DNA from: an uncultured Bacillota bacterium
GTDB taxonomy: Bacteria; Bacillota_I; Bacilli_A; RFN20; CAG-826
NCBI GenBank assembly: GCA_949299565.1
Contig: OX437086.1
Coordinates: 880,099 to 944,098 of the forward strand
Reading direction: 5' to 3'
Length of the DNA stretch: 64,000 bases
Shown here: positions 22,622-38,063 of the stretch, one piece after another
Layout: each line of letters starts with the position of its first letter
Numbering within the stretch: position 1 is the first letter of the stretch
The notes under the pieces: generated by a model
The model's input: only the letters and a program-made list of their open reading frames with translations
The model's database searches: none
Told to the model about the DNA's origin: nothing
Program-made: the position numbers and the translations under genes

Positions 22622-24307
22622 CTATTTAAGGGGTTTCTCGTACAAGGCAAACGTCGTGAGGTTTTTCTCTTTTAAATCTGTGGGATCATAATTTTTGCCG
22701 TTTTCTTGATAAATGTGGAGTCGATAATGCTTTGCCGCTTCTTCATTACAAATCGCGACTAAAATTGTTGAAGAATCAACATTCATCGATGAAACGATTT
22801 TCGCGGCTTCTGAGGTTGAATTGATTTCCTTTTTTAAGCGTTTCTCCAAGAAAATAGAACATTGTTTAAAAGCTTCGTTTTTCGATAAATAAAGCGTCTC
22901 CTTATCATAGATCATATTTCTATCAAGTTCGCGGTTGCTCGCTAAAACGTATCGAATCGGCTTAACGAGTTGCTCGACTTCCTTAAAAGATGAGAATTCG
23001 TTTTTCGGCTCTAAGTCTTCGTTATTGTTGCTGATTGGCACTAAAGCAAGATCTAGATAGCCGTTTTCCAAATATTTTCGTTCAGTCATGAAATCATCGA
23101 AATAGATTTTCTTGTAATCAGAATATTTAGAGGCAAGTTCTGTCCGAAAGGCCATATCTGTATTCGAATAAGGGTATCCGAAAATGCCAATTATTTTTTG
23201 TCCGGGTTTTCTGATCGAATAGAAGGAAGAAGAATAGTCTAGTAATTTTGCATCTTTCTCGCTGATCCGATAAAAACGGACGCGACCGCTCAATTTAGTG
23301 CCTCTTGAGAAGAACCAGCCATCCATCGTCGTAATCCCGTTTTTCCCGATCTGGCCAATGAATTGACAGTTCCCTTCAGCCCGATCACCGGAATTGTTTG
23401 AAACATTCGAGGAATAATGATAGAAGCCCTTCCCGACCATGTCATGCTCGTCAATCCCGAAAACAAAGGAATCCGCCGAGAAGAAAAGAATATCTTCTCC
23501 AACGAAATGACATTTCATCGAGAGCTGTTTCTTTTTATAAGAAATATCGACAATCCTAAGCCTTAAACCTTTCGGAACATAAGCAAGGCCGTCCTTCCGT
23601 TCTTCAAAAGAATAATAAATCCACTTCCCCGTAATCAACGAGTTGCGGTTATCTTCATCAAAGCCCGTCATCCCCAGCACGAGGTTTAAAACAACAACTA
23701 AGACCGTTCCTACCGCGGAATATATTTCTTCATTGGCCTCCGGCAAAAATTTAAAAAACGAGGAAAGGAATAAAAGAATCGTCAAAGTGATCGAAATTAA
23801 GGCAGAAACCAAACGCACGATGAAAGAGACCGTCACATGCGAACCGAAATAATTTTTGATGCGCATGATCAAAGAACGTCGATAATCATTCAATTTAAAT
23901 AGACGAAACTCGAGCATTTCAAAATCTTCATCATCCTCGTCGTATAAAAAGCTCAAGGCTTCCTCGTTATTCTCTTTCGAGAGAGCGTAATTTGAATAAC
24001 GCGAATTCACGAAACGGCTAAGCTTATCGATTTTTGCAACGAATAAGCCGATTTCGATGATTTGATCGATATTTAAACGGCTGATTAAAGAGAGGAAATC
24101 ATAATTTGGATGATTATCGATGGTTCGCGACGGAAGAAGCAAAAAATCAATCTCGCGTTTTTTTAAGCGCGCGACCATTTCTGATAAAGAAGCACATAAC
24201 ACAAGTTCAACTTCCTGCCCCTCAAAAAGTTTATGATTCATGAGGTTTGAAAGTAACACTTCTTTTTGAAGGGTTTCCGGTGTCTTTAAATATCCGACTT
24301 TCAGCAT
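22622..24307 (-). CDS. Membrane protein built from prephenate-dehydratase (PDT)-like domains, no ACT domain
   Basis: N-terminal about 100 aa resemble the PDT N-subdomain (VGYLKTPETL...ELVLCASLSEMVARLKKREIDFLLLP); two hydrophobic helices in the middle; C-terminal about 250 aa resemble a full PDT domain (IGIFGYPYSNTDMAF...LDLALVPISN...STSEAAKIVSS...NLTTFAL) with TTF where TRF is expected. Confidence 0.65.
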   Translation of the reverse strand: MLKVGYLKTPETLQKEVLLSNLMNHKLFEGQEVELVLCASLSEMVARLKKREIDFLLLPSRTIDNHPNYDFLSLISRLNIDQIIEIGLFVAKIDKLSRFVNSRYSNYALSKENNEEALSFLYDEDDEDFEMLEFRLFKLNDYRRSLIMRIKNYFGSHVTVSFIVRLVSALISITLTILLFLSSFFKFLPEANEEIYSAVGTVLVVVLNLVLGMTGFDEDNRNSLITGKWIYYSFEERKDGLAYVPKGLRLRIVDISYKKKQLSMKCHFVGEDILFFSADSFVFGIDEHDMVGKGFYHYSSNVSNNSGDRAEGNCQFIGQIGKNGITTMDGWFFSRGTKLSGRVRFYRISEKDAKLLDYSSSFYSIRKPGQKIIGIFGYPYSNTDMAFRTELASKYSDYKKIYFDDFMTERKYLENGYLDLALVPISNNNEDLEPKNEFSSFKEVEQLVKPIRYVLASNRELDRNMIYDKETLYLSKNEAFKQCSIFLEKRLKKEINSTSEAAKIVSSMNVDSSTILVAICNEEAAKHYRLHIYQENGKNYDPTDLKEKNLTTFALYEKPLK

Positions 24308-25008: not shown

Positions 25009-25452
25009 GTTTCTTTATCTTAAACATTAAGCCATAAGAGTTCCTTAATCATCAAAGAAAAAACATTTTGTGCGACTACTTTGTTATTATTCTGAGTTAT
25101 TACACAACAAGATTTAAAAAATGTCGAAAAGAAAAAAGAACTTTAATGCTATAAAAAATTTTTCCATTTTATTTCTCCTAACTCTTTCAATTTTTCAAAA
25201 GCGTTTGCATCTATTATTGTGTCTAACCACGGTCCGTTCCCTCCTTCGTCAAAAATGCCGTTGGTACGAAGGCTATCTAATTAAAGATGGCTGAGAGAAA
25301 TCTTCTATAAGCAATGATTTAGTTCTCAACAAGCATTATTAGTCGAATGCTTTTATTTATGCTTTTTCTTTTTTCATAAAAGTTAAACAACAACTCGATG
25401 TATTGAGCTTTTTAAAGATGACTAATTTTTTGATGAAACTTATTCGCGGTCG

Positions 25453-26247
25453 TCAAATATTGCTGATAATGTTAAATAATAAAACGAAAATCAAAACAAG
25501 AAACACTATGAGGCCAAATAAATAACCCATGGAATATGCTATATCGTTTTTCTTATTATTTTTATAACTCGTTTTTTTGCGTACTATTTTTTTATTTTTG
25601 GGAGATATACTGTTTTTTACAGTACCTTGCGTTTTATTGATATTTTTATGTTCAGACAAACGTTCCCAATGCCGCGCAGGGACGCATTTTTTTAAAGCAT
25701 TATACGCTTCTAGATGTTCATCAACTATTTTTCGACAAGCTATTTGATACCTATTAAAACTGGCCATTGGAATGGTTCCATCATAAAGAGAATCAATATC
25801 ATTAATGATCAAGTCGACGCCATTGTTATACATTCCTGTCTCATATTCTATCTTTAAATGTAAAATAAGATGCTCTAAAAGATTGCAGTAGGTTAAAACG
25901 TCAGGTTGGTGAAAGCTAATATATAACGATGAATAAGGTTTATTTGGACCAACATACAAATTCTCTTGCTTAGATAGTTGCGGGTATTTATTTTCAAGAT
26001 CATGATGAATTGAAAGTCCTTCTAACCCGCGCTTAATCGATTTGTTTTGTTTGAATGTATAATTTTTATCAACAATAAAATAAGAACCACTAACTTTCCC
26101 ATATTTGGTTTTAAGAGCTCTTAAGCATTGCTTATAGTTCAAATCACAATATAAATGCTGGAGAAATCTTTCATCTTTTTGAATTTTTTGATATTCAGCT
26201 TCCCCCAAACTTGAGTTTGCTGATTTAGATTCATTGGTTGATTCCAT
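25453..26247 (-). CDS. Hypothetical tail-anchored membrane protein (island gene)
   Basis: 264 aa; soluble N-terminal domain, Lys-rich linker and a single C-terminal TM helix; AT-rich codon usage like neighbouring island genes. Confidence 0.5.
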   Translation of the reverse strand: MESTNESKSANSSLGEAEYQKIQKDERFLQHLYCDLNYKQCLRALKTKYGKVSGSYFIVDKNYTFKQNKSIKRGLEGLSIHHDLENKYPQLSKQENLYVGPNKPYSSLYISFHQPDVLTYCNLLEHLILHLKIEYETGMYNNGVDLIINDIDSLYDGTIPMASFNRYQIACRKIVDEHLEAYNALKKCVPARHWERLSEHKNINKTQGTVKNSISPKNKKIVRKKTSYKNNKKNDIAYSMGYLFGLIVFLVLIFVLLFNIISNI

Positions 26248-26577
26248 ACTTAAATTATATGCTTAAGTTTTGCACAATAGCTTTTATTAAGAATTACTAT
26301 AAAACCAACTTTATAATATGCAACTAAAGATGCACTGCCATTAATTTCACCATAAAAATTATGACGAATATCAATTCAGAAAACGCAAAATGATTGATAT
26401 CGCTATTGCAGATGATGATAAAGTAGTCGTTCTTTTGTGTTTTTATATGTCTATGACTCAAAATATAGAAAAATTTTAGCTAAGAAAATAATAACAAAAA
26501 CTTTCATTGCCTTGTCACTGAAACTAATATCACCATATTTTTTAGGGAGTAGCACGCGTACAAATATGACGTAAATT

Positions 26578-28440
26578 TTACCTAATTTTTAGCATTTTCT
26601 TTATATGTTCATTCAAAGCTTTATCTTCGCAAAATATATAGCATCCTTTTTGCCCACGCGTTAATAGGGTGCGATAAGTGTTTTTGATGATAATATCGCA
26701 ATCTTTTTCGTGAAGCGGGTTATTCTTGTAGCCCTTTAGTGATTTGTCAGTTTTAGCTCTTGCATCTTTGTTTGTTAAAACATTACCGTGCCTATAGATT
26801 AGGTCTTTTCCAATAATCACACCAACGTGATCAAATTCAAGCCCCTGACACGTGTGAATGCAGCCTATTTGATCAAAAGAGTCCTTATCTATTGCCCAAG
26901 TCTTGGTGTTTGAAAAGTTCCACTGAGCTTTAAAATCGCTCCCTATTTGAATATCAAATTTTGTCAAATCATCACGACTTATCCAATCATAACAATAACC
27001 CGCAACAATTCTAGACTTATTGTTTATCTCGTTTTTCTTTCTCAGCTCTTCCCTCATTGCAGAAGGGCTATCGAAGACCTTTATATCATATTCCTTTCGG
27101 TCGAAACTAACATTCGCTGTAGGCCTAATTTCTAGCAAATTATCTAAAAAAGCTAAGTATGCGTCACTACCATTACATCTAAACTGAGATGTTAGCGTCA
27201 ACTCTTTTCCAAAATAGGCTTTTGAATCTAAAATTTTAGCCCATTTTTTAATTTCGTCTATTGAACCGATATCGCTGGAAGTAATTCTTTGATCCTCGTC
27301 AATAAAAAAGACGCTAACCTTCGCTGCGTTAATTATTTCTTTTATTTGGTTTTCGCCTTTGCCGTTAAAAATAGATTTTTTGTTCAAACGATGAGCTTCA
27401 TCGGCAATGATACAATCGAATTCGTTTTTAGTGGAGTCAACAAAAACACCACTGCCTTTAAATAAATTTTTAATATACGCTTTTTTAAAATCTCCACCTG
27501 CGAGTTTTTTATAATAAACTTCTCGTGGTGCACTATTCTTAGAAGTGTAGATAGCATTAAAACCATCGCGAATTAAACTCGACAGCATCTTGATTGCAAT
27601 CACAGATTTTCCAGTGCCAGGACCGCCTTGAACGATAATGGTATGTTTAGTGTCGGTTTTTAGACTCTCATTAATCGTTTTCAAAATAGTTTCATATGCT
27701 ACCTTTTGCTCATCCAATAGTTTAAAAGAATCATTTCCTTTAATTAACCTTTCGATTTCATCTTGTAAAGCAGTTGATGGTCTAATTTTTCCATTTTCAA
27801 TTTCGTATAAAATTTTTCCATCATCAGGATTAACAACATACTTCTTTATAAAATCAGCCAGTTTTTTTCGATCCCTTTGTAGAAAAAGCGGAGCCTCTTT
27901 TATTATAGTTCGATAGCGCTCATCTTCGATTTTATATCGATTTGATTCATTGAAATTATGAAGAAAGGCGCAAGGAATCATTCGAATATTCTTTTTTTGA
28001 ATAGATTCGTTAAAATTCTCGATAGTTTTCGCATAACTATATGCTTGATATGATGGGTGTGCCTCTTCTCTATATGCTCTTGCGACATAGGTTATTACTA
28101 TATCCTTCTTGTCGCTTAGTTCTATATCTTCCCATTGCTTAAGTTCTATGATGACTGCGTTGCTTTTGCCGTGATCGTCTCTACCTGTGATTATAAAATC
28201 AATTCTTTTCGATGTTAGAGGAATTTGAAGTTCTATTGCGACGTTTAAATTTCTATTTATTCCAAAAGATTCATCAAAAACTCCATCAATCTGCGGCAAC
28301 GAGTTCTCAAAGGCACGATGTTCCCTTGGATTATTATGCGTGAGTCCTTGCTTGCGAAACCCATCCTCGATTCGATCAGCAATGACGCCATTTATAATGT
28401 CTTCATGAAATTTGCTTACGATGCTAGAGTAGATTATCAT
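26578..28440 (-). CDS. PD-(D/E)xK nuclease-like N-terminal domain fused to a DUF2075/SF1-helicase-like P-loop ATPase
   Basis: N-terminal IDFIITG ... AVIIELKQW (D ... E-x-K); Walker A VQGGPGTGKSV; Walker B/DEAH-like CIIADEAHRL; motifs SQFRCNG and CQGLEFDHVGVIIG; start ATG overlaps the MazG-like stop (ATGA). Confidence 0.8.
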   Translation of the reverse strand: MIIYSSIVSKFHEDIINGVIADRIEDGFRKQGLTHNNPREHRAFENSLPQIDGVFDESFGINRNLNVAIELQIPLTSKRIDFIITGRDDHGKSNAVIIELKQWEDIELSDKKDIVITYVARAYREEAHPSYQAYSYAKTIENFNESIQKKNIRMIPCAFLHNFNESNRYKIEDERYRTIIKEAPLFLQRDRKKLADFIKKYVVNPDDGKILYEIENGKIRPSTALQDEIERLIKGNDSFKLLDEQKVAYETILKTINESLKTDTKHTIIVQGGPGTGKSVIAIKMLSSLIRDGFNAIYTSKNSAPREVYYKKLAGGDFKKAYIKNLFKGSGVFVDSTKNEFDCIIADEAHRLNKKSIFNGKGENQIKEIINAAKVSVFFIDEDQRITSSDIGSIDEIKKWAKILDSKAYFGKELTLTSQFRCNGSDAYLAFLDNLLEIRPTANVSFDRKEYDIKVFDSPSAMREELRKKNEINNKSRIVAGYCYDWISRDDLTKFDIQIGSDFKAQWNFSNTKTWAIDKDSFDQIGCIHTCQGLEFDHVGVIIGKDLIYRHGNVLTNKDARAKTDKSLKGYKNNPLHEKDCDIIIKNTYRTLLTRGQKGCYIFCEDKALNEHIKKMLKIR

Positions 28441-28763
28441 AACTTATCATATTTAAGAGATTTTGATTTGCATTTTTCAATAGGATATTTTCTTTTCGTT
28501 TTTTCAAGTTTATCTAAAACAATTTTATTGATATCAAGATTCAAGACTTGCGCCATTTGAATACAATAATTAATTACATCGGCAAGCTCGTCTTTTACAT
28601 CATTTGAGTTGAAGTTTTTCTCATCCCATTGAAAACACTCAAGAAGTTCGTTGGCTTCAATGGAAATAGATTTAGCTAAATTAGCGGGTGTATGAAATTT
28701 GTTCCAATCTCTCTCGTCAACGAATTTTTTAATTTCCGCTTGCAATAAATCTAGTTTATCCAT
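28437..28763 (-). CDS. MazG-like nucleoside-triphosphate pyrophosphohydrolase (small all-alpha type)
   Basis: 108 aa with the EExxE-type metal-binding segment (SIEANELLECFQWDE, DELADV); translationally coupled to the nuclease-helicase gene. Confidence 0.75.
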   Translation of the reverse strand: MDKLDLLQAEIKKFVDERDWNKFHTPANLAKSISIEANELLECFQWDEKNFNSNDVKDELADVINYCIQMAQVLNLDINKIVLDKLEKTKRKYPIEKCKSKSLKYDKL

Positions 28764-28858
28764 GATTTTATTTTATCATTGTTAAAGATTAAAAAACTAA
28801 AGAAATGTTCGGCACTGCTTTTCAGTATCGGAGTATCAAAATAACCACTTCAATATTG

Positions 28859-28879
28859 CTTAACTTTTTAAAAGTTAAG
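28859..28879 (-). promoter_or_regulatory. 21-bp near-perfect palindrome upstream of the MazG-like/nuclease-helicase operon (candidate operator)
   Basis: CTTAAC-TTTTTAAAA-GTTAAG, about 100 nt upstream of the MazG-like start; AT-rich, so not a convincing terminator. Confidence 0.3.
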
Positions 28880-29088
28880 AAGCTACATGGTACTAGAATC
28901 GCCTCACATTCTTGTCTGAATCATTTGCATAGCCGTAACATCTGCCGTCGAAATGCTCAAATTGTTCCAAATCATGAGTAACCTCAATACCCTCTAGCAA
29001 AGAAGGCAACAAACCAAAGCAAACAACCCTGTTGCAATAAGTTTGGCAGCTAACAACAAAAAACTCAGTCCTATAACTCAGTAATCGA

Positions 29089-29769
29089 TTATTCAACCAT
29101 AAGAGTTCCAATGAATTGACCAACATTTGACCCTAGTTCTTCTTTAAGATCATATAAATCTTCACAAAATTCTTGTTCATTCTTGATTGCAATTTTAATT
29201 TTGTCTTTATAAATTGCGAAGTCCAAATTGCGCTTATTGTGATGGAAAAAATTTTCAACCTGTAATTCTAAGTATCTTTTAGAATTCTCTTTACAATTTT
29301 CAAGCATCTTTTTCCTATCTAAATTGAAAATTTTATCGTCATGCATTAACAAAAATAATTCAAATGTCGGATTTGAAATACAAAGCTTGTATCCTTTTTC
29401 ACAACATAATTTTAAATAAGTATCATATTGCTCCGATTTAAAATTCTGAGGATCACGATCAAAAACGAATACTGCAATATCAACATCCTTATCATAATTA
29501 ATTTTGCCTTCTTTTACTGAGTCCTCAAAATTATTGATTTTACGTTTTAAATGACTTTGACCAACTTCGTCTTCCTCGTTTTCAATAATAGTAAGCTTTA
29601 TAAGTTTGTTTAGATGAAGACATTCGCTATTGTTTTTTAAGCCTTCAAAATATCTTATTTCAGTTACATCGCCCTCCGAAACAATAAAACAGAATTTATT
29701 AAACTCTCTATTATTTCTTTTTCTATCATAATTACTTTTGCTGCCAAGTTCTCTCATCAAACACCTCAT
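29089..29769 (-). CDS. RloB-like protein (AbiLii-like partner of the upstream ATPase)
   Basis: Motifs CFIVSEGDVTEIRYF and CISNPTFELFLLMH match my recollection of the RloB family; start overlaps the ATPase stop (TAATG). Confidence 0.7.
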   Translation of the reverse strand: MRCLMRELGSKSNYDRKRNNREFNKFCFIVSEGDVTEIRYFEGLKNNSECLHLNKLIKLTIIENEEDEVGQSHLKRKINNFEDSVKEGKINYDKDVDIAVFVFDRDPQNFKSEQYDTYLKLCCEKGYKLCISNPTFELFLLMHDDKIFNLDRKKMLENCKENSKRYLELQVENFFHHNKRNLDFAIYKDKIKIAIKNEQEFCEDLYDLKEELGSNVGQFIGTLMVE

Positions 29770-31112
29770 TAAGCGAAGTAATTATTAAAATTAGGAATTC
29801 CACCATATCGTCCATCTAGATAGGCCTTATCAACTTTTTTATCAAATCTTTCGCCAAATTCTTCAAGCGAATATACTGTGGTTGGTCCATTATTTTTTCT
29901 TTCACAAAACCAAATCTCATCCCTTCTCAAAAGATCCAAATCCAATAAACGAGTTTCATGTGTAGTTACAACTAATTGAGAATTTGATGTTTTAGAAAAG
30001 AAAGACTTAATAAATTCGAAAGAAAGATCTGGATGAAAACATCTATTAAGTTCATCAATAAAATAAACTTTCTCAGAATGATCATCCATTAAAACTTGAA
30101 TCAAATCAAATAACCTTTGAGTACCATCGCTCTCTTCATCAAATTCATATAACCCGTCGTCATTTCTGTGCTGAAAAGTTATTTTCTTTAGTTGATAAGA
30201 GTTATCTTTTTTGCCGAGAAAGTAAATATTGTTATTGAGCCTTATATTAACTTGCGGATTGGTCTTTTTATTCTTAGAAGCATTAAACTGTTCAAATTGA
30301 TTGAGTAAATCATTAAATATAACAGGAGGCAATTTATTTTGAAGTTCTTCAAGTGGACAATCGACCAATTTGCATTCTGATATACCAGTTCCAAACTTTG
30401 AAATTAAAGCATTTATCTCATTAATTTTCTGGTTAGAAATGAAAAATTTAGAGTTGTCTAAAGACATATTTGGGAAAATAACAACCAACGAATTAGAAAA
30501 CCAATTAAATATTTTTTTAAAAATCATTACACTATTATTTGCGTTTTCTTCATATAAAGTGTCCTTGTTGGTATTCATCAATGTTAAAAACAAAATATTG
30601 TCCTGATTTTTAATATCAGAGTAATAAATATTAAGCCTATTTAAAATATCTTCTTCAAAATAATTTTTGCTTAACTTTATTCCGCCATTTGTGACTCTTT
30701 TAAAAATCAAAATATCTTTCTCATCAGGACCAAGTTCATACAGCCATTCGGCCTTAATGCTATTTTTAGAGAGTAATATATCAAAACCATAGGTATATAT
30801 CTTATTATCAATTTCAAACTCAAAATCAAAAGTAGAAATTTTATCTTTATTCTCTTTTTTTCCTCTGTAATAACAACTCGACCAATTAATTCTAATGCCT
30901 TCTAAAACTACTCTTTTGAAAAAGGCAACAGCCTTAATTAAATTTGATTTCCCAGAAGCGTTTGCTCCGTATAATTCAGCAAATTTAAGTATTTTCAATT
31001 TGCCCTTATTAACACAATGATCAACTTTCTTTTTAGGAGCTCCAGCCACCATCGATATTGTTTGCTTTGAGTCAAATGATAAAAAATTCGATATGGTATA
31101 GCTAATTAGCAT
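29769..31112 (-). CDS. AAA/ABC-type ATPase (AbiLi-like, AAA_21-type)
   Basis: Walker A GANASGKSN near N-terminus; split-ATPase C-terminal motifs DEESDGTQR, Walker B VYFIDELNRCFHP, TTHE; RBS AGAGGAGG upstream. Confidence 0.8.
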   Translation of the reverse strand: MLISYTISNFLSFDSKQTISMVAGAPKKKVDHCVNKGKLKILKFAELYGANASGKSNLIKAVAFFKRVVLEGIRINWSSCYYRGKKENKDKISTFDFEFEIDNKIYTYGFDILLSKNSIKAEWLYELGPDEKDILIFKRVTNGGIKLSKNYFEEDILNRLNIYYSDIKNQDNILFLTLMNTNKDTLYEENANNSVMIFKKIFNWFSNSLVVIFPNMSLDNSKFFISNQKINEINALISKFGTGISECKLVDCPLEELQNKLPPVIFNDLLNQFEQFNASKNKKTNPQVNIRLNNNIYFLGKKDNSYQLKKITFQHRNDDGLYEFDEESDGTQRLFDLIQVLMDDHSEKVYFIDELNRCFHPDLSFEFIKSFFSKTSNSQLVVTTHETRLLDLDLLRRDEIWFCERKNNGPTTVYSLEEFGERFDKKVDKAYLDGRYGGIPNFNNYFA

Positions 31113-31134
31113 GGCTTACCTCCTCTTTGGTTAG

Positions 31135-31227
31135 ATTATAAGTGAAATTATCACTTGCAACAATCTTATTGAGTAATAAATTAACCTTATTTTGAAAATA
31201 TTTTATAAATTAAGGTGAAATTTTCAC
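31135..31227 (-). promoter_or_regulatory. Promoter of the AbiL-like operon with two palindromic operator-like sites
   Basis: Minus-strand reads GTGAAAATTTCAC (31215-31227, perfect 6-bp arms) ... TTGCAA-GTGATAATTTCAC (31142-31154)-T-TATAAT (31135-31140), then RBS and ATG at 31112; the second palindrome lies between the -35-like and -10 hexamers. Confidence 0.4.
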
Positions 31228-31302
31228 ATTGATTTAAAAGTATCGCCATGTTTTTTATTCTAAATAAGGTATTAAGACAATCAATTAAACCGCCACTGTA
31301 TT

Positions 31303-31328
31303 AAATAAAACAGCACCATTAAGTGCTG
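31303..31328 (-). terminator. Candidate Rho-independent terminator after gene 31426..32202
   Basis: Minus-strand hairpin CAGCAC-ttaatg-GTGCTG followed by TTTTATTT; stem is only 6 bp. Confidence 0.35.
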
Positions 31329-31425
31329 AAATTTGAGAATGTCTTTGTGTTATCGATTTAATACAAAACGATACCCCCTGTTAGAAAAATGACACCATTA
31401 TAAAGTGTTTATTTTGTTTGGCTTT

Positions 31426-32202
31426 TTACTTTCTCCTTCTCTTTCTTGTCGTTTTTTTCGATTTTTCTAAGCCTAATTTCCAAAGCCCCATATCCAAAAG
31501 TTTCATTTGTGGATATTCAATTGATGGGAGGTCTTTTAAAGTTAAAGTTTCCATCTTTTTTCTAATCTTTTTTTTATTTTTTGAATAGAAATCGACTAGC
31601 GCTTCGAATGAATTTTTACCGAATCTTTGAACTAATTCTTTTTCTCCGCATTCCTCTTTTCCAAATTTTAGTGCTCCTTTTAGCATCTCATCGTAAGCAG
31701 GAACGCATCCTAATGTTCCTAAGAGAATCTTCGTAACTAGAATGTCCGAAATAGCTTGATTAGTTGACTCGTCTTCGTTCCTAGCTTCTCTTCTAAAACG
31801 CTCATATTCTTTCTTAATTGAATTTATTAGTCCTTCATTACCTTCACTACCGAAGAGTAGATCTAAATTTGAAGAGTAGTTCTTATCACCTTTGTCCCAG
31901 CAATAGCCAATTAAAGGTTTATATTTATCATTGAGAATTAATTTGACGGTTTGAAGATGAACTTTGTAATCAAATTGCAACAGAAAAGATGATCCACGGT
32001 ACATTCCCCATGATGCAAGATAAAAAGCAAGGTGCAATGACAAATTCAAGTAATCATCTTCATTTAATTCGTTCAATTTATCGAATGCTTCATGAAATTT
32101 ACCATAACAATATTCCCAAGACAAATATCTAGAATTTGCATTGCTATCTATCTCTCTCTTAAACTTATTAAAAGATTTAATAAATTCATTAATAAATTTC
32201 AT
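31426..32202 (-). CDS. Hypothetical protein (island gene, basic C-terminal tail)
   Basis: 258 aa ORF with AT-rich codon usage; no family recognised; ends in a Lys/Arg-rich tail. Confidence 0.5.
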   Translation of the reverse strand: MKFINEFIKSFNKFKREIDSNANSRYLSWEYCYGKFHEAFDKLNELNEDDYLNLSLHLAFYLASWGMYRGSSFLLQFDYKVHLQTVKLILNDKYKPLIGYCWDKGDKNYSSNLDLLFGSEGNEGLINSIKKEYERFRREARNEDESTNQAISDILVTKILLGTLGCVPAYDEMLKGALKFGKEECGEKELVQRFGKNSFEALVDFYSKNKKKIRKKMETLTLKDLPSIEYPQMKLLDMGLWKLGLEKSKKTTRKRRRK

Positions 32203-32324
32203 ATCTATGCCTCCCTATATTTTTCAAAGAATTTATCTTCACCTGCTCTTCTAGCTTTAATAACATCTATTTTATATTTGAATCTGCCGAGCAAATGTGA
32301 TCTGTGTTGAAATATAATTTGAGC

Positions 32325-32650
32325 TACCTATAGTCTTCGCTCCCTATCGTAATGAACGCCTGTGATGTCTGATGTGTTGCTTTTTTGGAATTTCCAATAG
32401 TTCTTTTGTTTTTCTTATAGGCAAAGCTAACCACTGTCAGTCTACCGAATTTTTGACCAATCAAGTCCCTCACCATGAAACGACTTCAACCGCTAAATTT
32501 GACCTGGCCAGTATGGAGCATGTTGACATTGAATTCTACCTCTTTTTCACAAACGCAACGTCATTTATAAATCTTTGTGGAATGATGCTTCTTCCCAGTA
32601 TCTTCGATCACAGTCAGATAGACATAGCGTTTCCCAATTTCAATATTCAT
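32325..32650 (-). pseudogene. Decayed gene fragments sharing an N-terminal G-x-K/R-F/Y-G-R-L-T-V motif
   Basis: Minus-strand short ORFs MNIEIGKRYVYLTVIEDTGKK (stops after 29 aa, with a Cys-containing continuation in another frame) and MVRDLIGQKFGRLTVVSFAYKK (50 aa, 32325..32477); GC content differs from flanks. Confidence 0.3.
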
Positions 32651-32765
32651 TTGCTTTGTAACCAATCAATAAATTTATAAACAAAATTGAAACCAAAAAA
32701 ACGAAAATAAAAGGATGGTTGTCGCCCACCACCCCAATTCAATCAAAGGAGGTTCTCATAGAACC

Positions 32766-33755
32766 TTAATCTTGTCTACTTACCTCCTTATCCAGGTTTT
32801 TAGCTAGCTTTGTGAAGATATAGCTATATTTCACATAGGTCTTTCCACCAAAGTCTTTGTTGTTTGTCGTTCTAATGCCATAAGGATTGAAGTTAAAGTC
32901 CTGCTCTTCCAAATCATCCTTGGCATCAGTGTTTTCGACAACGAGTTCACTGATATAAAGATTATTGGTTGGATGACCAAAATAGGAATTGATATCCCTC
33001 AAATTGACGTTTTGATAGTACTCATCAGCGGTTTTGCTATATGCAACATTGAAATAGATATCAAATGCATAAAGATAACCCATCGGCACAAAGTAATGCG
33101 ACAGATAAGTGTTGATGAGTAGACACTTATCAAGCAAATCCTGAATCAGTGACTTCAATCCGACATCGTAGCTTCTAATGACAACAAGATGGCTTTGAGC
33201 ACTAGAAGGCATGAACATTGAATAACCACTCTCCTTGGAGAAGACATTAACGTTTTCCGTGTCGAAGACCTCTCTTATGAAGTCGAATATTGCACTGGTC
33301 TTGACGAGCCTTAAATCAATAAGAATCTCACCACAGAACTTCTGCTTCTTCGATGCCTTCACGAACTGATTGAAAAGCCTGACTCCATATGCAGAATCAA
33401 AAAGTGTAGGCTGATTCACTTTATCGCTACCATTGGTTTGGTTGACGATTTCATAGTGGTTTTCAACTTTCACGACCTTGAATGATTGGCCGTTTGCGTT
33501 AAAGCAGATCTTATCGGCTTTTTCATCGTTGGTCAGAATATGGCAACAAACCAAGTTGTAATCCGCTGTTTTTCCTCCTTTTGACTGAGGATAGATGTGG
33601 TCGAGGTTCCATCCGTATTCGCTGTTGCGATTATCGTAGGCGGACTTAGCCATCGTCCTTCCAGCGAAATCCACAGCCCTGGTCTGCTTCCCGTACCTTG
33701 ACGTCCACAAACGCATTGCAGTTTCTCTGTTAACAATCATTTTTTCATTTTTCAT
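32766..33755 (-). CDS. HNH-nuclease-domain protein with unassigned C-terminal domain
   Basis: N-terminal GWNLDHIYPQSKGGKTADYNLVCCHILTN fits the HNH signature (D-H-x-x-P, N-L, Cys pair); the C-terminal about 230 aa has no motif I recognise. Confidence 0.65.
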   Translation of the reverse strand: MKNEKMIVNRETAMRLWTSRYGKQTRAVDFAGRTMAKSAYDNRNSEYGWNLDHIYPQSKGGKTADYNLVCCHILTNDEKADKICFNANGQSFKVVKVENHYEIVNQTNGSDKVNQPTLFDSAYGVRLFNQFVKASKKQKFCGEILIDLRLVKTSAIFDFIREVFDTENVNVFSKESGYSMFMPSSAQSHLVVIRSYDVGLKSLIQDLLDKCLLINTYLSHYFVPMGYLYAFDIYFNVAYSKTADEYYQNVNLRDINSYFGHPTNNLYISELVVENTDAKDDLEEQDFNFNPYGIRTTNNKDFGGKTYVKYSYIFTKLAKNLDKEVSRQD

Positions 33756-34445
33756 AATTTAATCTTTCAACAAGAAAAAAACTATGAGGTTGACCTCCTT
33801 TCATAAGGAGACGAATGCAATGATTGACTATAGGGCGACCTACTGCTGATACCTCGAAGGGTAGTTCTCTTAACAGCTTTGACAGAAAACTTTATCAATC
33901 AGCTCTAACTAAAGAGCTGTTAGATTCGTTCCTTACGTACTAATTATAACCGATGGAAACTATTAAAAAACGAAAATCTTGTGAATGCAAAAAAATGATA
34001 ACATTAGTCAAATTATTGCAATCAGCGCATAAAGTGTGAACTCTTAAATCTTTTTGATAAAACTTTTAGTCTATTTTGACTTTCTCATTGTTAAACCACG
34101 ACTTCGGAGGAAAATGCTCAAAAGATAAAGTTTTTTTCTAAACAAATATGACAAGTCCCAAAATGATTATTCTTTATTGTTTTCATACTAATATTTTAGC
34201 GTCATAAACTATGCAACCTAATCGTTTCTCTACTAGGCGTATCACATTTTCCTAGGGTATCTTTTTCTAGTAGCCTTAGCGTTCATCTAGTAGAGTTCTA
34301 TTTTGCTAGTAGCCTTAAACCACCTTTCGATTCCTTGGAGGTTTCGAACTTTAACTAGGAAAACTACTTAAAAAAATGCCCGATTTCTCGGACAAATATC
34401 GTTAATTTTGACACCCTTACTTTGTATCAAAATTTAGTTATAAGA

Positions 34446-34519
34446 TGGCAGGGGCTGAAGGAATCGAACCCTCATCAAAGGTTTTGGAGACCTCTGTTCT
34501 ACCATTGAACCAAGCCCCT
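34446..34519 (-). tRNA. tRNA-Trp (anticodon CCA)
   Basis: 74-nt cloverleaf folded by hand: acceptor AGGGGCT/AGCCCCT, D-stem GTTC/GAAC, anticodon stem GAGGT/ACCTT with loop CTCCAAA, T-arm GAGGG-TTCGATT-CCTTC, discriminator G and encoded CCA. Confidence 0.9.
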
Positions 34520-37156: not shown

Positions 37157-38063
37157 AAAGCCCCTCCGTTGAAAGATAACGCTCACCGTTATCCGGAAAG
37201 ATAGCGACGACATTGCCTGTTTGAAGAGGTAAGTGTAGAGAAGCATATAAAGAAGCACCGCTACTGATGCCGGCAAAGACGCCTTCAGTTTTAGCCAAAA
37301 GGCGCGTCATCTCATAAGCATCTTCGTTCCTGACTTTTATAATGTTCTTCAAATCATTTTTATCGACAATTGAAGGCACAAAATTCGCCCCTAATCCTTG
37401 TAATAAATGTGGTCCGCTACGTCCTTCGCTTAATAAGGGCGAACTAGCCGGCTCCACCGCAAAGAAAAGCGTCTCAGGCGAATGAACTTTAAAATAATGA
37501 TAAAGCCCTTCGTAAGTGCCGCCCGTTCCAATGCCGACAACAAGCGCCGCTACTTCGCCATTTAAATCTTTAAGAATTTCTGGTCCGCTTGTCATCTTAT
37601 GAGCGTGAGGATTTTCTAGATTCTCGAATTGACGAAGCATGACGGCTTTTCCGCTTCTAACTTCCTTTTCAGCTCTTTTGAGGGCACCGTCCATCCCTTC
37701 TTCAGCCGGCGTTAAATAAACTTCCGCGCCCCAAGCCTTCATCATCTTAATCCGTTCTTTGGAGGCGCTGCTCGGCATATATAAATGGCATTTAATTCCA
37801 AAAGAAGAGGCAATCATCGCTAAGGAAATTCCCATGTTGCCGCTTGTTGCTTCCACTAAAGTCATCCCGGGGCATAAGGTTTTATCATCTAGAGCCTTCT
37901 TGACCATATATAGAGCCGCGCGATCTTTTATAGAGCCGCTCGGATTAAAACGCTCTAATTTGCCATATAGTTTATATGGCAAGGAAAAGCGTTCCTCAAT
38001 CTTTCTTAGATGAAGAAGAGGCGTACCGCCAATCGTCTCTAAAATGCTTTCAAAAAGAGCCAT
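37149..38063 (-). CDS. cysK: Cysteine synthase (O-acetylserine sulfhydrylase)
   Basis: PLP-lysine motif SGSIKDRAALYM and Gly-rich loop GIGTGGT; directly upstream of cysE. Confidence 0.9.
   Translation of the reverse strand: MALFESILETIGGTPLLHLRKIEERFSLPYKLYGKLERFNPSGSIKDRAALYMVKKALDDKTLCPGMTLVEATSGNMGISLAMIASSFGIKCHLYMPSSASKERIKMMKAWGAEVYLTPAEEGMDGALKRAEKEVRSGKAVMLRQFENLENPHAHKMTSGPEILKDLNGEVAALVVGIGTGGTYEGLYHYFKVHSPETLFFAVEPASSPLLSEGRSGPHLLQGLGANFVPSIVDKNDLKNIIKVRNEDAYEMTRLLAKTEGVFAGISSGASLYASLHLPLQTGNVVAIFPDNGERYLSTEGLYD

Follow-up and report, generated by a model that had tools for sequence, protein, structure and literature searches.

A conserved pairing of Nhi-like nuclease-helicases with DCTPP1-type pyrophosphohydrolases, found at a variable tRNA-Trp island of a Bacillota genome

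Nhi (SERP2475) of Staphylococcus epidermidis is a 606-amino-acid (aa) protein combining a PD-(D/E)xK nuclease with a DUF2075 helicase, for which exonuclease/nickase and bidirectional helicase activities have been demonstrated, immunity requiring both, and which senses phage replication intermediates or SSB variants (Bari et al. 2022). One Nhi homologue has been reported to be toxic upon induction. The Nhi-like protein of Bacillus cereus FSL H8-0482, organized in the same way as Nhi, was verified as a single-gene defence system (Millman et al. 2022), and phages escape it through loss of a DNA methylase, an escape reported for the B. cereus protein only, which suggests that Nhi-like acts on methylated DNA. 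Nuclease-helicase fusions of the Nhi and Nhi-like kinds have so far been treated as single-gene defence systems. Here, we describe a gene pair from an uncultured Bacillota bacterium (GCA_949299565.1, contig OX437086.1, positions 880,099 to 944,098) in which a 620-aa nuclease-helicase of this kind is encoded together with a 108-aa MazG-like protein. The whole 64-kb stretch analysed is called the window, and coordinates below are positions in it.

The explanation that we favour, with moderate confidence, is that the pair constitutes a two-gene module against phages or mobile elements, carried in a swappable defence island and composed of an Nhi-like effector and an accessory enzyme that sanitizes the deoxynucleoside triphosphate (dNTP) pool. 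The effector assignment of the 620-aa protein is well supported. A widespread branch of such proteins, present in bacteria, archaea and the candidate phyla radiation (CPR), keeps a DCTPP1-type neighbour in about two thirds of genomes, which points to an unrecognized link between DNA-degrading immunity and nucleotide-pool control.

The two proteins and their relatives

The pair and the predicted parts of its larger product are as follows.

28437..28763, minus strand: gene of the MazG-like, DCTPP1-type all-alpha nucleoside triphosphate (NTP) pyrophosphohydrolase, 108 aa (open reading frame (ORF) and Pfam PF12643)
26578..28440, minus strand: gene of the nuclease-helicase of Nhi-like architecture, 620 aa (ORF, more than 8000 full-length homologues, AlphaFold2 (AF2) model)
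28437..28440, minus strand: ATGA stop/start overlap, translational coupling (read from the sequence)
27961..28440, minus strand: N-terminal helices and PD-(D/E)xK nuclease core, aa 1-160, with E69, D80, E98-x-K100 and Q131xxxY135
27661..27960, minus strand: helical linker region, aa 161-260, conserved and free of any recognizable domain (secondary structure, predicted local distance difference test (pLDDT) and Pfam)
26623..27660, minus strand: DUF2075/SLFN-group-3 helicase of superfamily 1B (SF1B), aa 261-606 (PF09848, Foldseek)

At the junction, the minus strand reads ...AAG TTA TGA / ATG ATA ATC..., the TGA stop of the 108-aa ORF lying inside the ATG of the 620-aa ORF. A preliminary description made from the letters alone had placed both ORFs and their ATGA overlap at the right coordinates, and only the strand needs correcting, both being encoded on the minus strand; the motifs that it quoted (KRIDFIITG, VIIELKQW, GGPGTGKS, CIIADEAHRL and QGLEFDHVGV) are all found in the translation. 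Neither ORF is a chance one, because the larger product matches PF09848 (SLFN-g3_helicase, formerly DUF2075) with an E-value of 2e-102 over residues 265-606 (343 bits against a cut-off of 24, covering model positions 1-354 of 354) and the smaller matches PF12643 (MazG-like) with an E-value of 8e-16 (58.5 bits against a cut-off of 27).

Full-length homologues of the 620-aa protein fill more than 8000 clusters at 90% identity, all of about 620 aa. Two family alignments, of 19 and 51 members with 55-74% identity, present invariant nuclease residues, namely E69, D80, E98-L-K100-Q101, H127-P128 and Q131-x-x-x-Y135, and the succession E...D...ExK...QxxxY is the signature of RecB/Cas4-type PD-(D/E)xK nucleases. 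The SF1 helicase motif series is likewise complete, comprising Walker A at G271-S278 (GPGTGKS), Walker B at D346-E347 (DEAHR), QFRC, QGLEFD and R594-G-Q-K (TRGQKG), and the P-loop NTPase elements G271-S278, D346-E347 and the arginine finger R594 are invariant in the 51 sequences. The linker stretch between the two parts, aa 161-260, has no Pfam match.

As the PDB, searched with the sequence of the large protein, returned no match, its structure was predicted, yielding an AF2 model with a pLDDT of 85.7. In this model, the N-terminal nuclease adopts a restriction-endonuclease-like alpha/beta fold, and the best Foldseek matches of the helicase are SLFN11, RecD, Dna2, RecD2, Dda and Upf1. Motifs and model together identify the protein as a predicted fusion of an N-terminal PD-(D/E)xK nuclease of the RecB-like branch with an SF1B helicase of the DUF2075/SLFN type, bearing out the restriction-endonuclease-like motif and SF1-like ATPase that had been read from the letters.

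About 13 family members are longer (about 800 aa) and carry a LexA/UmuD-type Peptidase_S24 domain of about 180 aa fused at the C-terminus; they come mostly from Pseudomonadota, with one from a CPR genome (loci L015, L023, L029, L040, L042, L046, L048, L049, L053, L063, L074, L084 and L085). In the fused domain, the cleavage-site motif AAG and both residues of the Ser/Lys dyad, the serine of GxSM and the lysine of TVK, are retained, which suggests that autoproteolysis, perhaps triggered by RecA*, controls the nuclease-helicase in these members.

The preliminary description had likened the protein to Nhi-type effectors, a resemblance that holds for the architecture and does not extend to membership of the Nhi or Nhi-like sequence families proper. 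Comparison with the first 399 residues of Nhi-like, the part taken from the supplement of Millman et al., gave a collinear alignment over window residues 4-353 that extends from the nuclease motifs through the linker to Walker A/B (probability 97.8% in hhalign, E-value 7e-13, 300 aligned columns, about 23% identity). The homology is distant, with the superfamily shared and the subfamily not. The PADLOC Nhi model matches residues 238-563 (E-value 6e-13) and leaves the N-terminal part unmatched, such that homology to Nhi over the full length was not found. Because identity to Nhi-like is about 23% and the PADLOC models reach the helicase part only, we place the window protein, by sequence, in a new and very large subfamily of the Nhi-like kind, outside both described sequence families.

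The small protein was assigned to the MazG-like group in the preliminary description, which agrees with its PF12643 match and with its homology to all-alpha NTP pyrophosphohydrolases of solved structure. Searched against the PDB, the window sequence finds the Archaeoglobus fulgidus pyrophosphatase 4qgp (E-value 1.6e-16) and DCTPP1/RS21-C6 (E-value 1.8e-12), while a profile of the partner proteins reaches E-values of 2e-29 and 5e-27, respectively, aligning end to end with DCTPP1 residues 38-144. DCTPP1 prefers dCTP and 5-modified dCTPs, preventing their misincorporation (PMC7162842, PMC13291643), and its pocket and metal residues comprise F41, W47, F50, H51, W73, Y102, Y129, E63, E66, E95 and D98 (PMC13291643).

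Mapped onto the window protein, the DCTPP1 metal residues E63, E66, E95 and D98 correspond to E36, E39, E59 and D62, and the metal-binding ExxE...ExxD residues (E36, E39, E42, E59 and D62) are kept by 28 of 29 partners. The Trp47/Trp73 sandwich corresponds to W20/W46, and Phe41, Phe50, His51 and Tyr129 correspond to F14, F23, H24 and Y93, all of them conserved among partners; the equivalent of Tyr102, Y66, is aromatic and not strictly conserved. Since the metal residues and most of the pyrimidine-pocket residues are intact, there is little doubt, as judged from these correspondences, that the partner is an active dNTP pyrophosphohydrolase whose pocket is of the pyrimidine type. PADLOC v2 has no match or model for it, and its nearest named relative comes from a gut metagenome-assembled genome of 'Candidatus Enteromonas/Alloenteromonas', from which the bacterium carrying the window probably lives in the gut as well. 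One related locus (L095:5001-6368) carries a 455-aa ORF whose N-terminal 108 or so residues are MazG-like and whose remaining 350 or so residues have no Pfam match, possibly a fusion or a read-through artefact.

Conservation of the pairing

Whether the two genes occur together in other genomes had been put forward as a test in the preliminary description, and the outcome is positive. A scan with the helicase as query, using one genome per GTDB species, returned 80 loci, 70 of them with enough flanking sequence to be tested. The 80 loci span Bacillota, Pseudomonadota, Bacteroidota, Spirochaetota, Chloroflexota, Planctomycetota, Thermotogae and Omnitrophota, and further Saccharibacteria/Parcubacteria (CPR) and methanogenic and other archaea. 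A MazG-like gene lies adjacent and on the same strand in 45 of the 70 testable loci (64%), upstream in 34 and downstream in 11, with gaps mostly below 30 nucleotides (nt); the overlap of -4 seen in the window recurs in nine of the 45. These paired loci come from Bacillota, Pseudomonadota, Bacteroidota, Chloroflexota, Thermotogae, the CPR and archaea. In a neighbour-joining tree, which carries no support values, loci with the partner occur at all depths, from the deepest branches to the shallowest, and its absences are scattered, a pattern that fits an old association followed by repeated loss.

The reciprocal scan, in which metagenome contigs were searched with a MazG query built from a 10-sequence alignment, gave the same proportion: a DUF2075 gene adjoins the MazG-like gene in 38 of 59 testable loci (64%). 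These DUF2075 neighbours belong to the window family and to GIY-YIG-DUF2075 fusions. Such fusions, of about 570-590 aa and with a MazG-like neighbour, are found at L138:5312-7051, L124:5318-7030, L160:824-2530 and L091:5340-7115, and in four loci (L091, L093, L094 and L107) a different DUF2075 gene lies on either side of the MazG gene.

Plasmids carry related arrangements. On plasmid 1 of Halalkalicoccus jeotgali, a gene annotated as 'nucleotide pyrophosphohydrolase' is followed by a DUF2075 gene; on a Priestia aryabhattai plasmid, a MutT gene, a McrB_N (DUF3578) gene overlapping a pyrophosphohydrolase gene and a DUF2075 gene adjoin a type I restriction-modification (RM) system; and on a Streptomyces plasmid, a DUF3883/NOV_C gene precedes DUF2075. 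Bacillus thuringiensis pKK1 (L174, NZ_AP014865.1 262381-271057) encodes a DEAD/DEAH helicase, a PRA-PH-type NTP pyrophosphatase (NTP-PPase) of 107 aa, an HNH endonuclease of 350 aa and a PD-(D/E)xK-DUF2075 protein of 637 aa. The latter represents a third DUF2075 subfamily that shares the signature E..D..ExK..QxxxY, and its NTP-PPase belongs to a different all-alpha family. MutT-like NUDIX genes adjoin five of about 75 loci. Cultured carriers of the pair include Clostridium neonatale LCDC99-A-005, Parageobacillus caldoxylosilyticus NBRC 107762 and Halomonas sp. G11, besides the Priestia aryabhattai plasmid NZ_CP083270. Taken together, these gene orders indicate that the linkage is one that joins all-alpha NTP pyrophosphohydrolases to nuclease-DUF2075 helicases in general and no peculiarity of one strain.

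The literature searched, in which coverage of subscription journals is thin, holds no description of a pairing of DUF2075, Nhi-like or Schlafen proteins with MazG, in agreement with the preliminary description, which knew of no system joining a nuclease-helicase to a MazG-like enzyme; a domain-centric screen published in Nucleic Acids Research in 2026 mentions neither domain. No relative is encoded by any of the 107 pattern matches among the viral contigs of IMG/VR, and only four INPHARED records carry one, including a 22-kb 'Microcystis phage' with the pair; thus, the pair is not a typical phage gene.

The island and its neighbourhood

The surroundings of the pair comprise the following features, all outside the module itself.

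25159..34444, no strand: strain-variable low-GC (guanine-cytosine) island carrying the pair (GC content, BLAST boundaries against L178 and L087)
34446..34519, minus strand: tRNA-Trp, its 3' end abutting the island at the boundary 34445 (ARAGORN, Rfam)
29089..31112, minus strand: AbiL system, with AbiLi at 29769..31112 and AbiLii/RloB at 29089..29769 (PADLOC, Pfam)
28859..28879, no strand: perfect 10+1+10 palindrome CTTAACTTTT-T-AAAAGTTAAG, 96 nt upstream of the MazG ATG and unique in the window

The island measures 9.3 kb, with a GC content of 0.29-0.33 against 0.40-0.44 in its flanks. Directly upstream of the pair lies AbiL, recognized by PADLOC (AbiLi, E-value 4e-78; AbiLii, E-value 3e-15) and by the Pfam families AAA_21 and RloB. 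The system is complete, with an AbiLi AAA_21 ATPase of 447 aa and an AbiLii/RloB protein of 226 aa whose genes share base 29769 between stop and start; sister strains carry AbiL length variants of 427 and 213 aa.

In L178, a strain whose flanking prephenate dehydratase (PDT) protein is identical, the slot of 25159..34444 holds different defence-type cargo, and the sister strains that have the pair are without the innermost 3.1 kb (31342..34444). The L178 cargo (L178:1638-9129) consists of a helix-turn-helix/MqsA-like gene, a 760-aa DndB-domain protein, a D12 adenine methyltransferase, DUF7226, a Methylase_S fragment, T5orf172 and a weak BRCT protein. The site at tRNA-Trp is a hotspot for the insertion of defence cargo. 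At the far island edge, no direct repeat matching at least 11 nt of the tRNA-Trp 3' end was found.

Residence in a defence island, which the preliminary description had raised as a check, is evident in the window from the adjacent AbiL, the alternative cargo in L178, the mapped boundaries and the GC dip, and defence-type neighbours accompany the pair in other genomes too. These neighbours include Fic (SoFic and PDC-S04 models), AbiEi, KAP NTPases, RhuM, integrases, McrB_N and RM components. The most frequent pair neighbour is Fic/DOC, with the motif HxFx[DE]GN[GK]R, accounting for eight of 143 flanking proteins (loci L015, L020, L029, L040, L057, L063 and, beside a solo nuclease-helicase, L006).

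Other genes of the region were also described. The 3.1-kb insertion 31342..34444 at the tRNA-Trp 3' end contains a Staphylococcus-1 RNA match, a 329-aa gene and the gene of a 258-aa protein (31426..32202). The RNA match, to Rfam RF03112, is full-length (33808..33932, minus strand) and scores 81.5 bits against a gathering score of 87.7 (E-value 1e-16); it lies directly upstream of the 329-aa ORF (32766..33755, minus strand), the product of which has as its only recognizable feature an N-terminal HNH motif (Pfam HNH_4, with a weak match to the NCBIfam Cas9d HNH region). At 25453..26247 (minus strand), 330 nt downstream of the nuclease-helicase, a gene encodes a protein of 264 aa that has a SAV1803-related domain (NCBIfam) and a hydrophobic segment at the C-terminus. 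Considered as a third component of the module, this gene was rejected: every sister strain that carries the pair has it, but it is absent beside the closest paired relative (L001). The flanking PDT protein (22622..24307, minus strand; 561 aa) matches prephenate dehydratase over its C-terminal 170 or so residues, the N-terminal 370 or so, including a hydrophobic stretch, being unmatched.

The palindrome had been pointed out as a 21-bp element about 100 nt upstream of the pair; it is indeed present, and its significance does not hold up. A 64-kb Markov shuffle is expected to contain about 0.7 perfect palindromes whose arms reach at least 10 nt, and at least one appears in 11% of shuffles of the island alone. 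A palindrome with arms of at least 9 bp lies upstream of MazG in only 10 of 125 related loci, and all ten sequences differ. A role as operator or terminator was rejected on these grounds, namely a chance-level occurrence and no conservation in the 125 related loci, and the palindrome is probably without significance. Consensus scans found no terminator, and promoter-like sites were no commoner than in shuffles. The only other palindrome with 10-nt arms in the window is TTGCCATATAGTTTATATGGCAA at 37960..37982.

Proposed function and comparison with known systems

In the module that we favour, the SF1B helicase of the DUF2075/Schlafen-group-3 type would load on invading DNA and translocate along or unwind it, and the N-terminal RecB-like PD-(D/E)xK nuclease would nick or degrade the DNA bound by the helicase. 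Such unwinding and nuclease activities were shown biochemically for Nhi and are implied for the verified Nhi-like, and it is from this kinship and the island context that we infer a defence activity. The co-translated DCTPP1-type partner would act in trans on the nucleotide pool, hydrolysing non-canonical dNTPs, most likely C5-modified pyrimidines. It may thereby keep modified nucleotides, whether set free by the degradation of phage DNA or produced by the phage, out of the host DNA, which would otherwise acquire target marks, or it may deprive those phages whose replication draws on modified dNTPs of their building blocks. Both roles are possible and fit the data, and we make no choice between them.

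Several hints point to a modification theme: the escapers of Nhi-like have lost a methylase, the pocket of the partner is of the DCTPP1 type, McrB_N, DUF3883 and HNH genes are among the neighbours, and DUF2075 genes were already remarked in print to flank modification-dependent endonucleases. A more specific version, which we put forward only tentatively, would make the partner the self-protection element of a modification-sensing nuclease-helicase, clearing modified dNTPs, for instance 5-methyl- or 5-hydroxymethyl-dCTP, that are phage-made or salvaged from broken-down phage DNA, such that the host chromosome does not acquire the marks that the nuclease would attack. If true, self and non-self would be discriminated by sanitizing the nucleotide pool, not by a methyltransferase or a guide, a principle undescribed for bacterial immunity that would parallel the action of DCTPP1 in the mammalian epigenome.

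Several observations weigh against the sanitizing module. On the side of the proteins, His38 of DCTPP1, one of two proposed cytosine selectivity filters, is replaced by the variable I11; Pfam detects no modified-base reader domain (SRA, EVE/PUA, McrB_N, DUF3427 and similar) in either protein; the link to modification dependence comes through a relative with only 23% identity; and the PADLOC models Nhi, AbiO and PDC-S41 match the helicase part only, and weakly. On the side of the loci, the partner is absent from 25 of the 70 testable family members (about 36%), such that the pairing is not obligate and the partner is evidently dispensable. The solo close relatives L002-L006 lie in plain metabolic neighbourhoods, so not every copy resides in a defence island, and solo family members are in general found more often among ordinary metabolic genes. 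The MazG-like loci lacking a DUF2075 neighbour adjoin HsdM, Y-family polymerases, LexA-like or unrelated genes, and the enzyme is therefore not exclusive to this partnership. Finally, the two proteins co-evolve weakly (mirror-tree r 0.27, Mantel p 0.001), at a level compatible with shared phylogeny, and no helicase residue tracks the presence of the partner above the permutation null, so that no dedicated interface is supported. Weak co-evolution and the lack of a tracking position fit an action of the partner in trans better than an obligate complex.

The strongest alternative, which we nonetheless regard as doubtful, turns the MazG-like enzyme into a second effector that would deplete canonical dCTP during infection while the nuclease-helicase acts in parallel. 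The high dCTP affinity of the DCTPP1 family, the conserved catalytic residues of the partner, the co-expression that tight translational coupling would give and the precedent of the defensive dCTP deaminase and dGTPase all speak for it. Those enzymes resemble the partner as a nucleotide-pool arm of immunity, by functional analogy only, and differ in having unrelated folds, in being stand-alone systems and in that depletion of canonical dNTPs has been demonstrated for them. The partner is a 108-aa core devoid of a regulatory or sensor domain, and constitutive dCTP hydrolysis would harm the host unless gated; its subfamily also occurs in non-defence contexts, and PADLOC finds no match for it.

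A DNA-damage or repair module, in which a Dna2/RecD-like nuclease-helicase would act on damaged or stalled replication intermediates and the pyrophosphatase would clean up damaged dNTPs, is unlikely. Although the fold resembles Dna2, RecD and SLFN11, about 13 members bear the C-terminal S24 autoprotease with its cleavage site and Ser/Lys dyad kept, Y-family polymerase and LexA-like genes adjoin members of the MazG-like subfamily, MutT genes occur as neighbours, and certain copies without the partner lie in metabolic surroundings, the distribution is patchy, with horizontal mobility. The pair occupies a low-GC tRNA island that holds other defence-type cargo in another strain, plasmid copies lie among RM systems, AbiL, Fic/SoFic, AbiEi and McrB_N are neighbours, and the closest characterized relatives are defence proteins.

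Still less probable is that the small protein gates the nuclease-helicase in an antitoxin-like manner, by binding it or by destroying an activating nucleotide. Such gating would suit a small gene that overlaps a large, potentially toxic nuclease gene, and one Nhi homologue is toxic on induction; yet 36% of family members do without the partner, the partner keeps its full catalytic machinery, the gene order flips and no nuclease-helicase position covaries with partner presence. That the pairing also takes in GIY-YIG fusions and another NTP-PPase family further argues against a specific protein-protein interface. As for an accidental adjacency of a housekeeping pyrophosphatase and a mobile helicase gene, the occurrence of the MazG-like subfamily in unrelated contexts would allow it, but a linkage of about 64% in both survey directions, which spans phyla and domains and keeps both genes on one strand, mostly no more than 30 nt apart and often with an overlap, effectively refutes it.

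Sanitizing of the nucleotide pool beside an Nhi-like effector remains the reading that we prefer. It offers a hypothesis for how nuclease-helicases avoid, or exploit, modified nucleotides, and it gives bacterial DCTPP1-like proteins a candidate biological role.

Among known systems, type IV restriction (McrBC and the DUF3427-DUF3883 enzymes) is approached in that DUF2075 genes adjoin such enzymes, that a McrB_N reader gene and a DUF3883/NOV_C gene are found in operons with relatives of the window protein, and that Nhi-like is escaped by phage methylase loss; it differs in that the window protein has no detectable reader domain; a few relatives have readers, solely as separate adjoining genes. 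The SF1B helicase domains of Dna2, RecD/RecD2, Dda and SLFN11 are the best structural matches of the window helicase, and Dna2 also has the nuclease first and the SF1B helicase second, whereas no sequence-level relation to these proteins emerged in the PDB search. Besides, the window protein lacks the Fe-S cluster cysteine set around the nuclease, and its size and genomic context are unlike those of the Dna2/RecD group.

The small protein shares with DCTPP1/RS21-C6 and 4qgp its end-to-end homology, the ExxE...ExxD metal site, the Trp sandwich, the equivalents of the Phe, His and Tyr pocket residues and a C-terminal KYP...KY tail. It differs from DCTPP1 in that His38 is not conserved, in being a bare 108-aa core, and in its linkage to a nuclease-helicase, which has no mammalian counterpart.

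Nhi, like the window protein, is a single polypeptide of about 600 aa that unites a PD-(D/E)xK nuclease with a DUF2075 SF1 helicase, whereas its PADLOC model covers the window helicase part only and no partner gene has been described for it. Nhi-like comes closest, with its parts arranged identically (a PD-(D/E)xK nuclease with E..D..ExK..QxxxY at the N-terminus, then a helical linker, then the DUF2075 helicase), a similar length (611 against 620 aa) and an association with defence islands; it belongs to a distinct sequence family, at about 23% identity, and was cloned and active as a single gene, whereas the window gene is translationally coupled to a pyrophosphatase. The effector is a new representative of a known kind, and its conserved pairing with an NTP pyrophosphohydrolase is undescribed in the literature searched.

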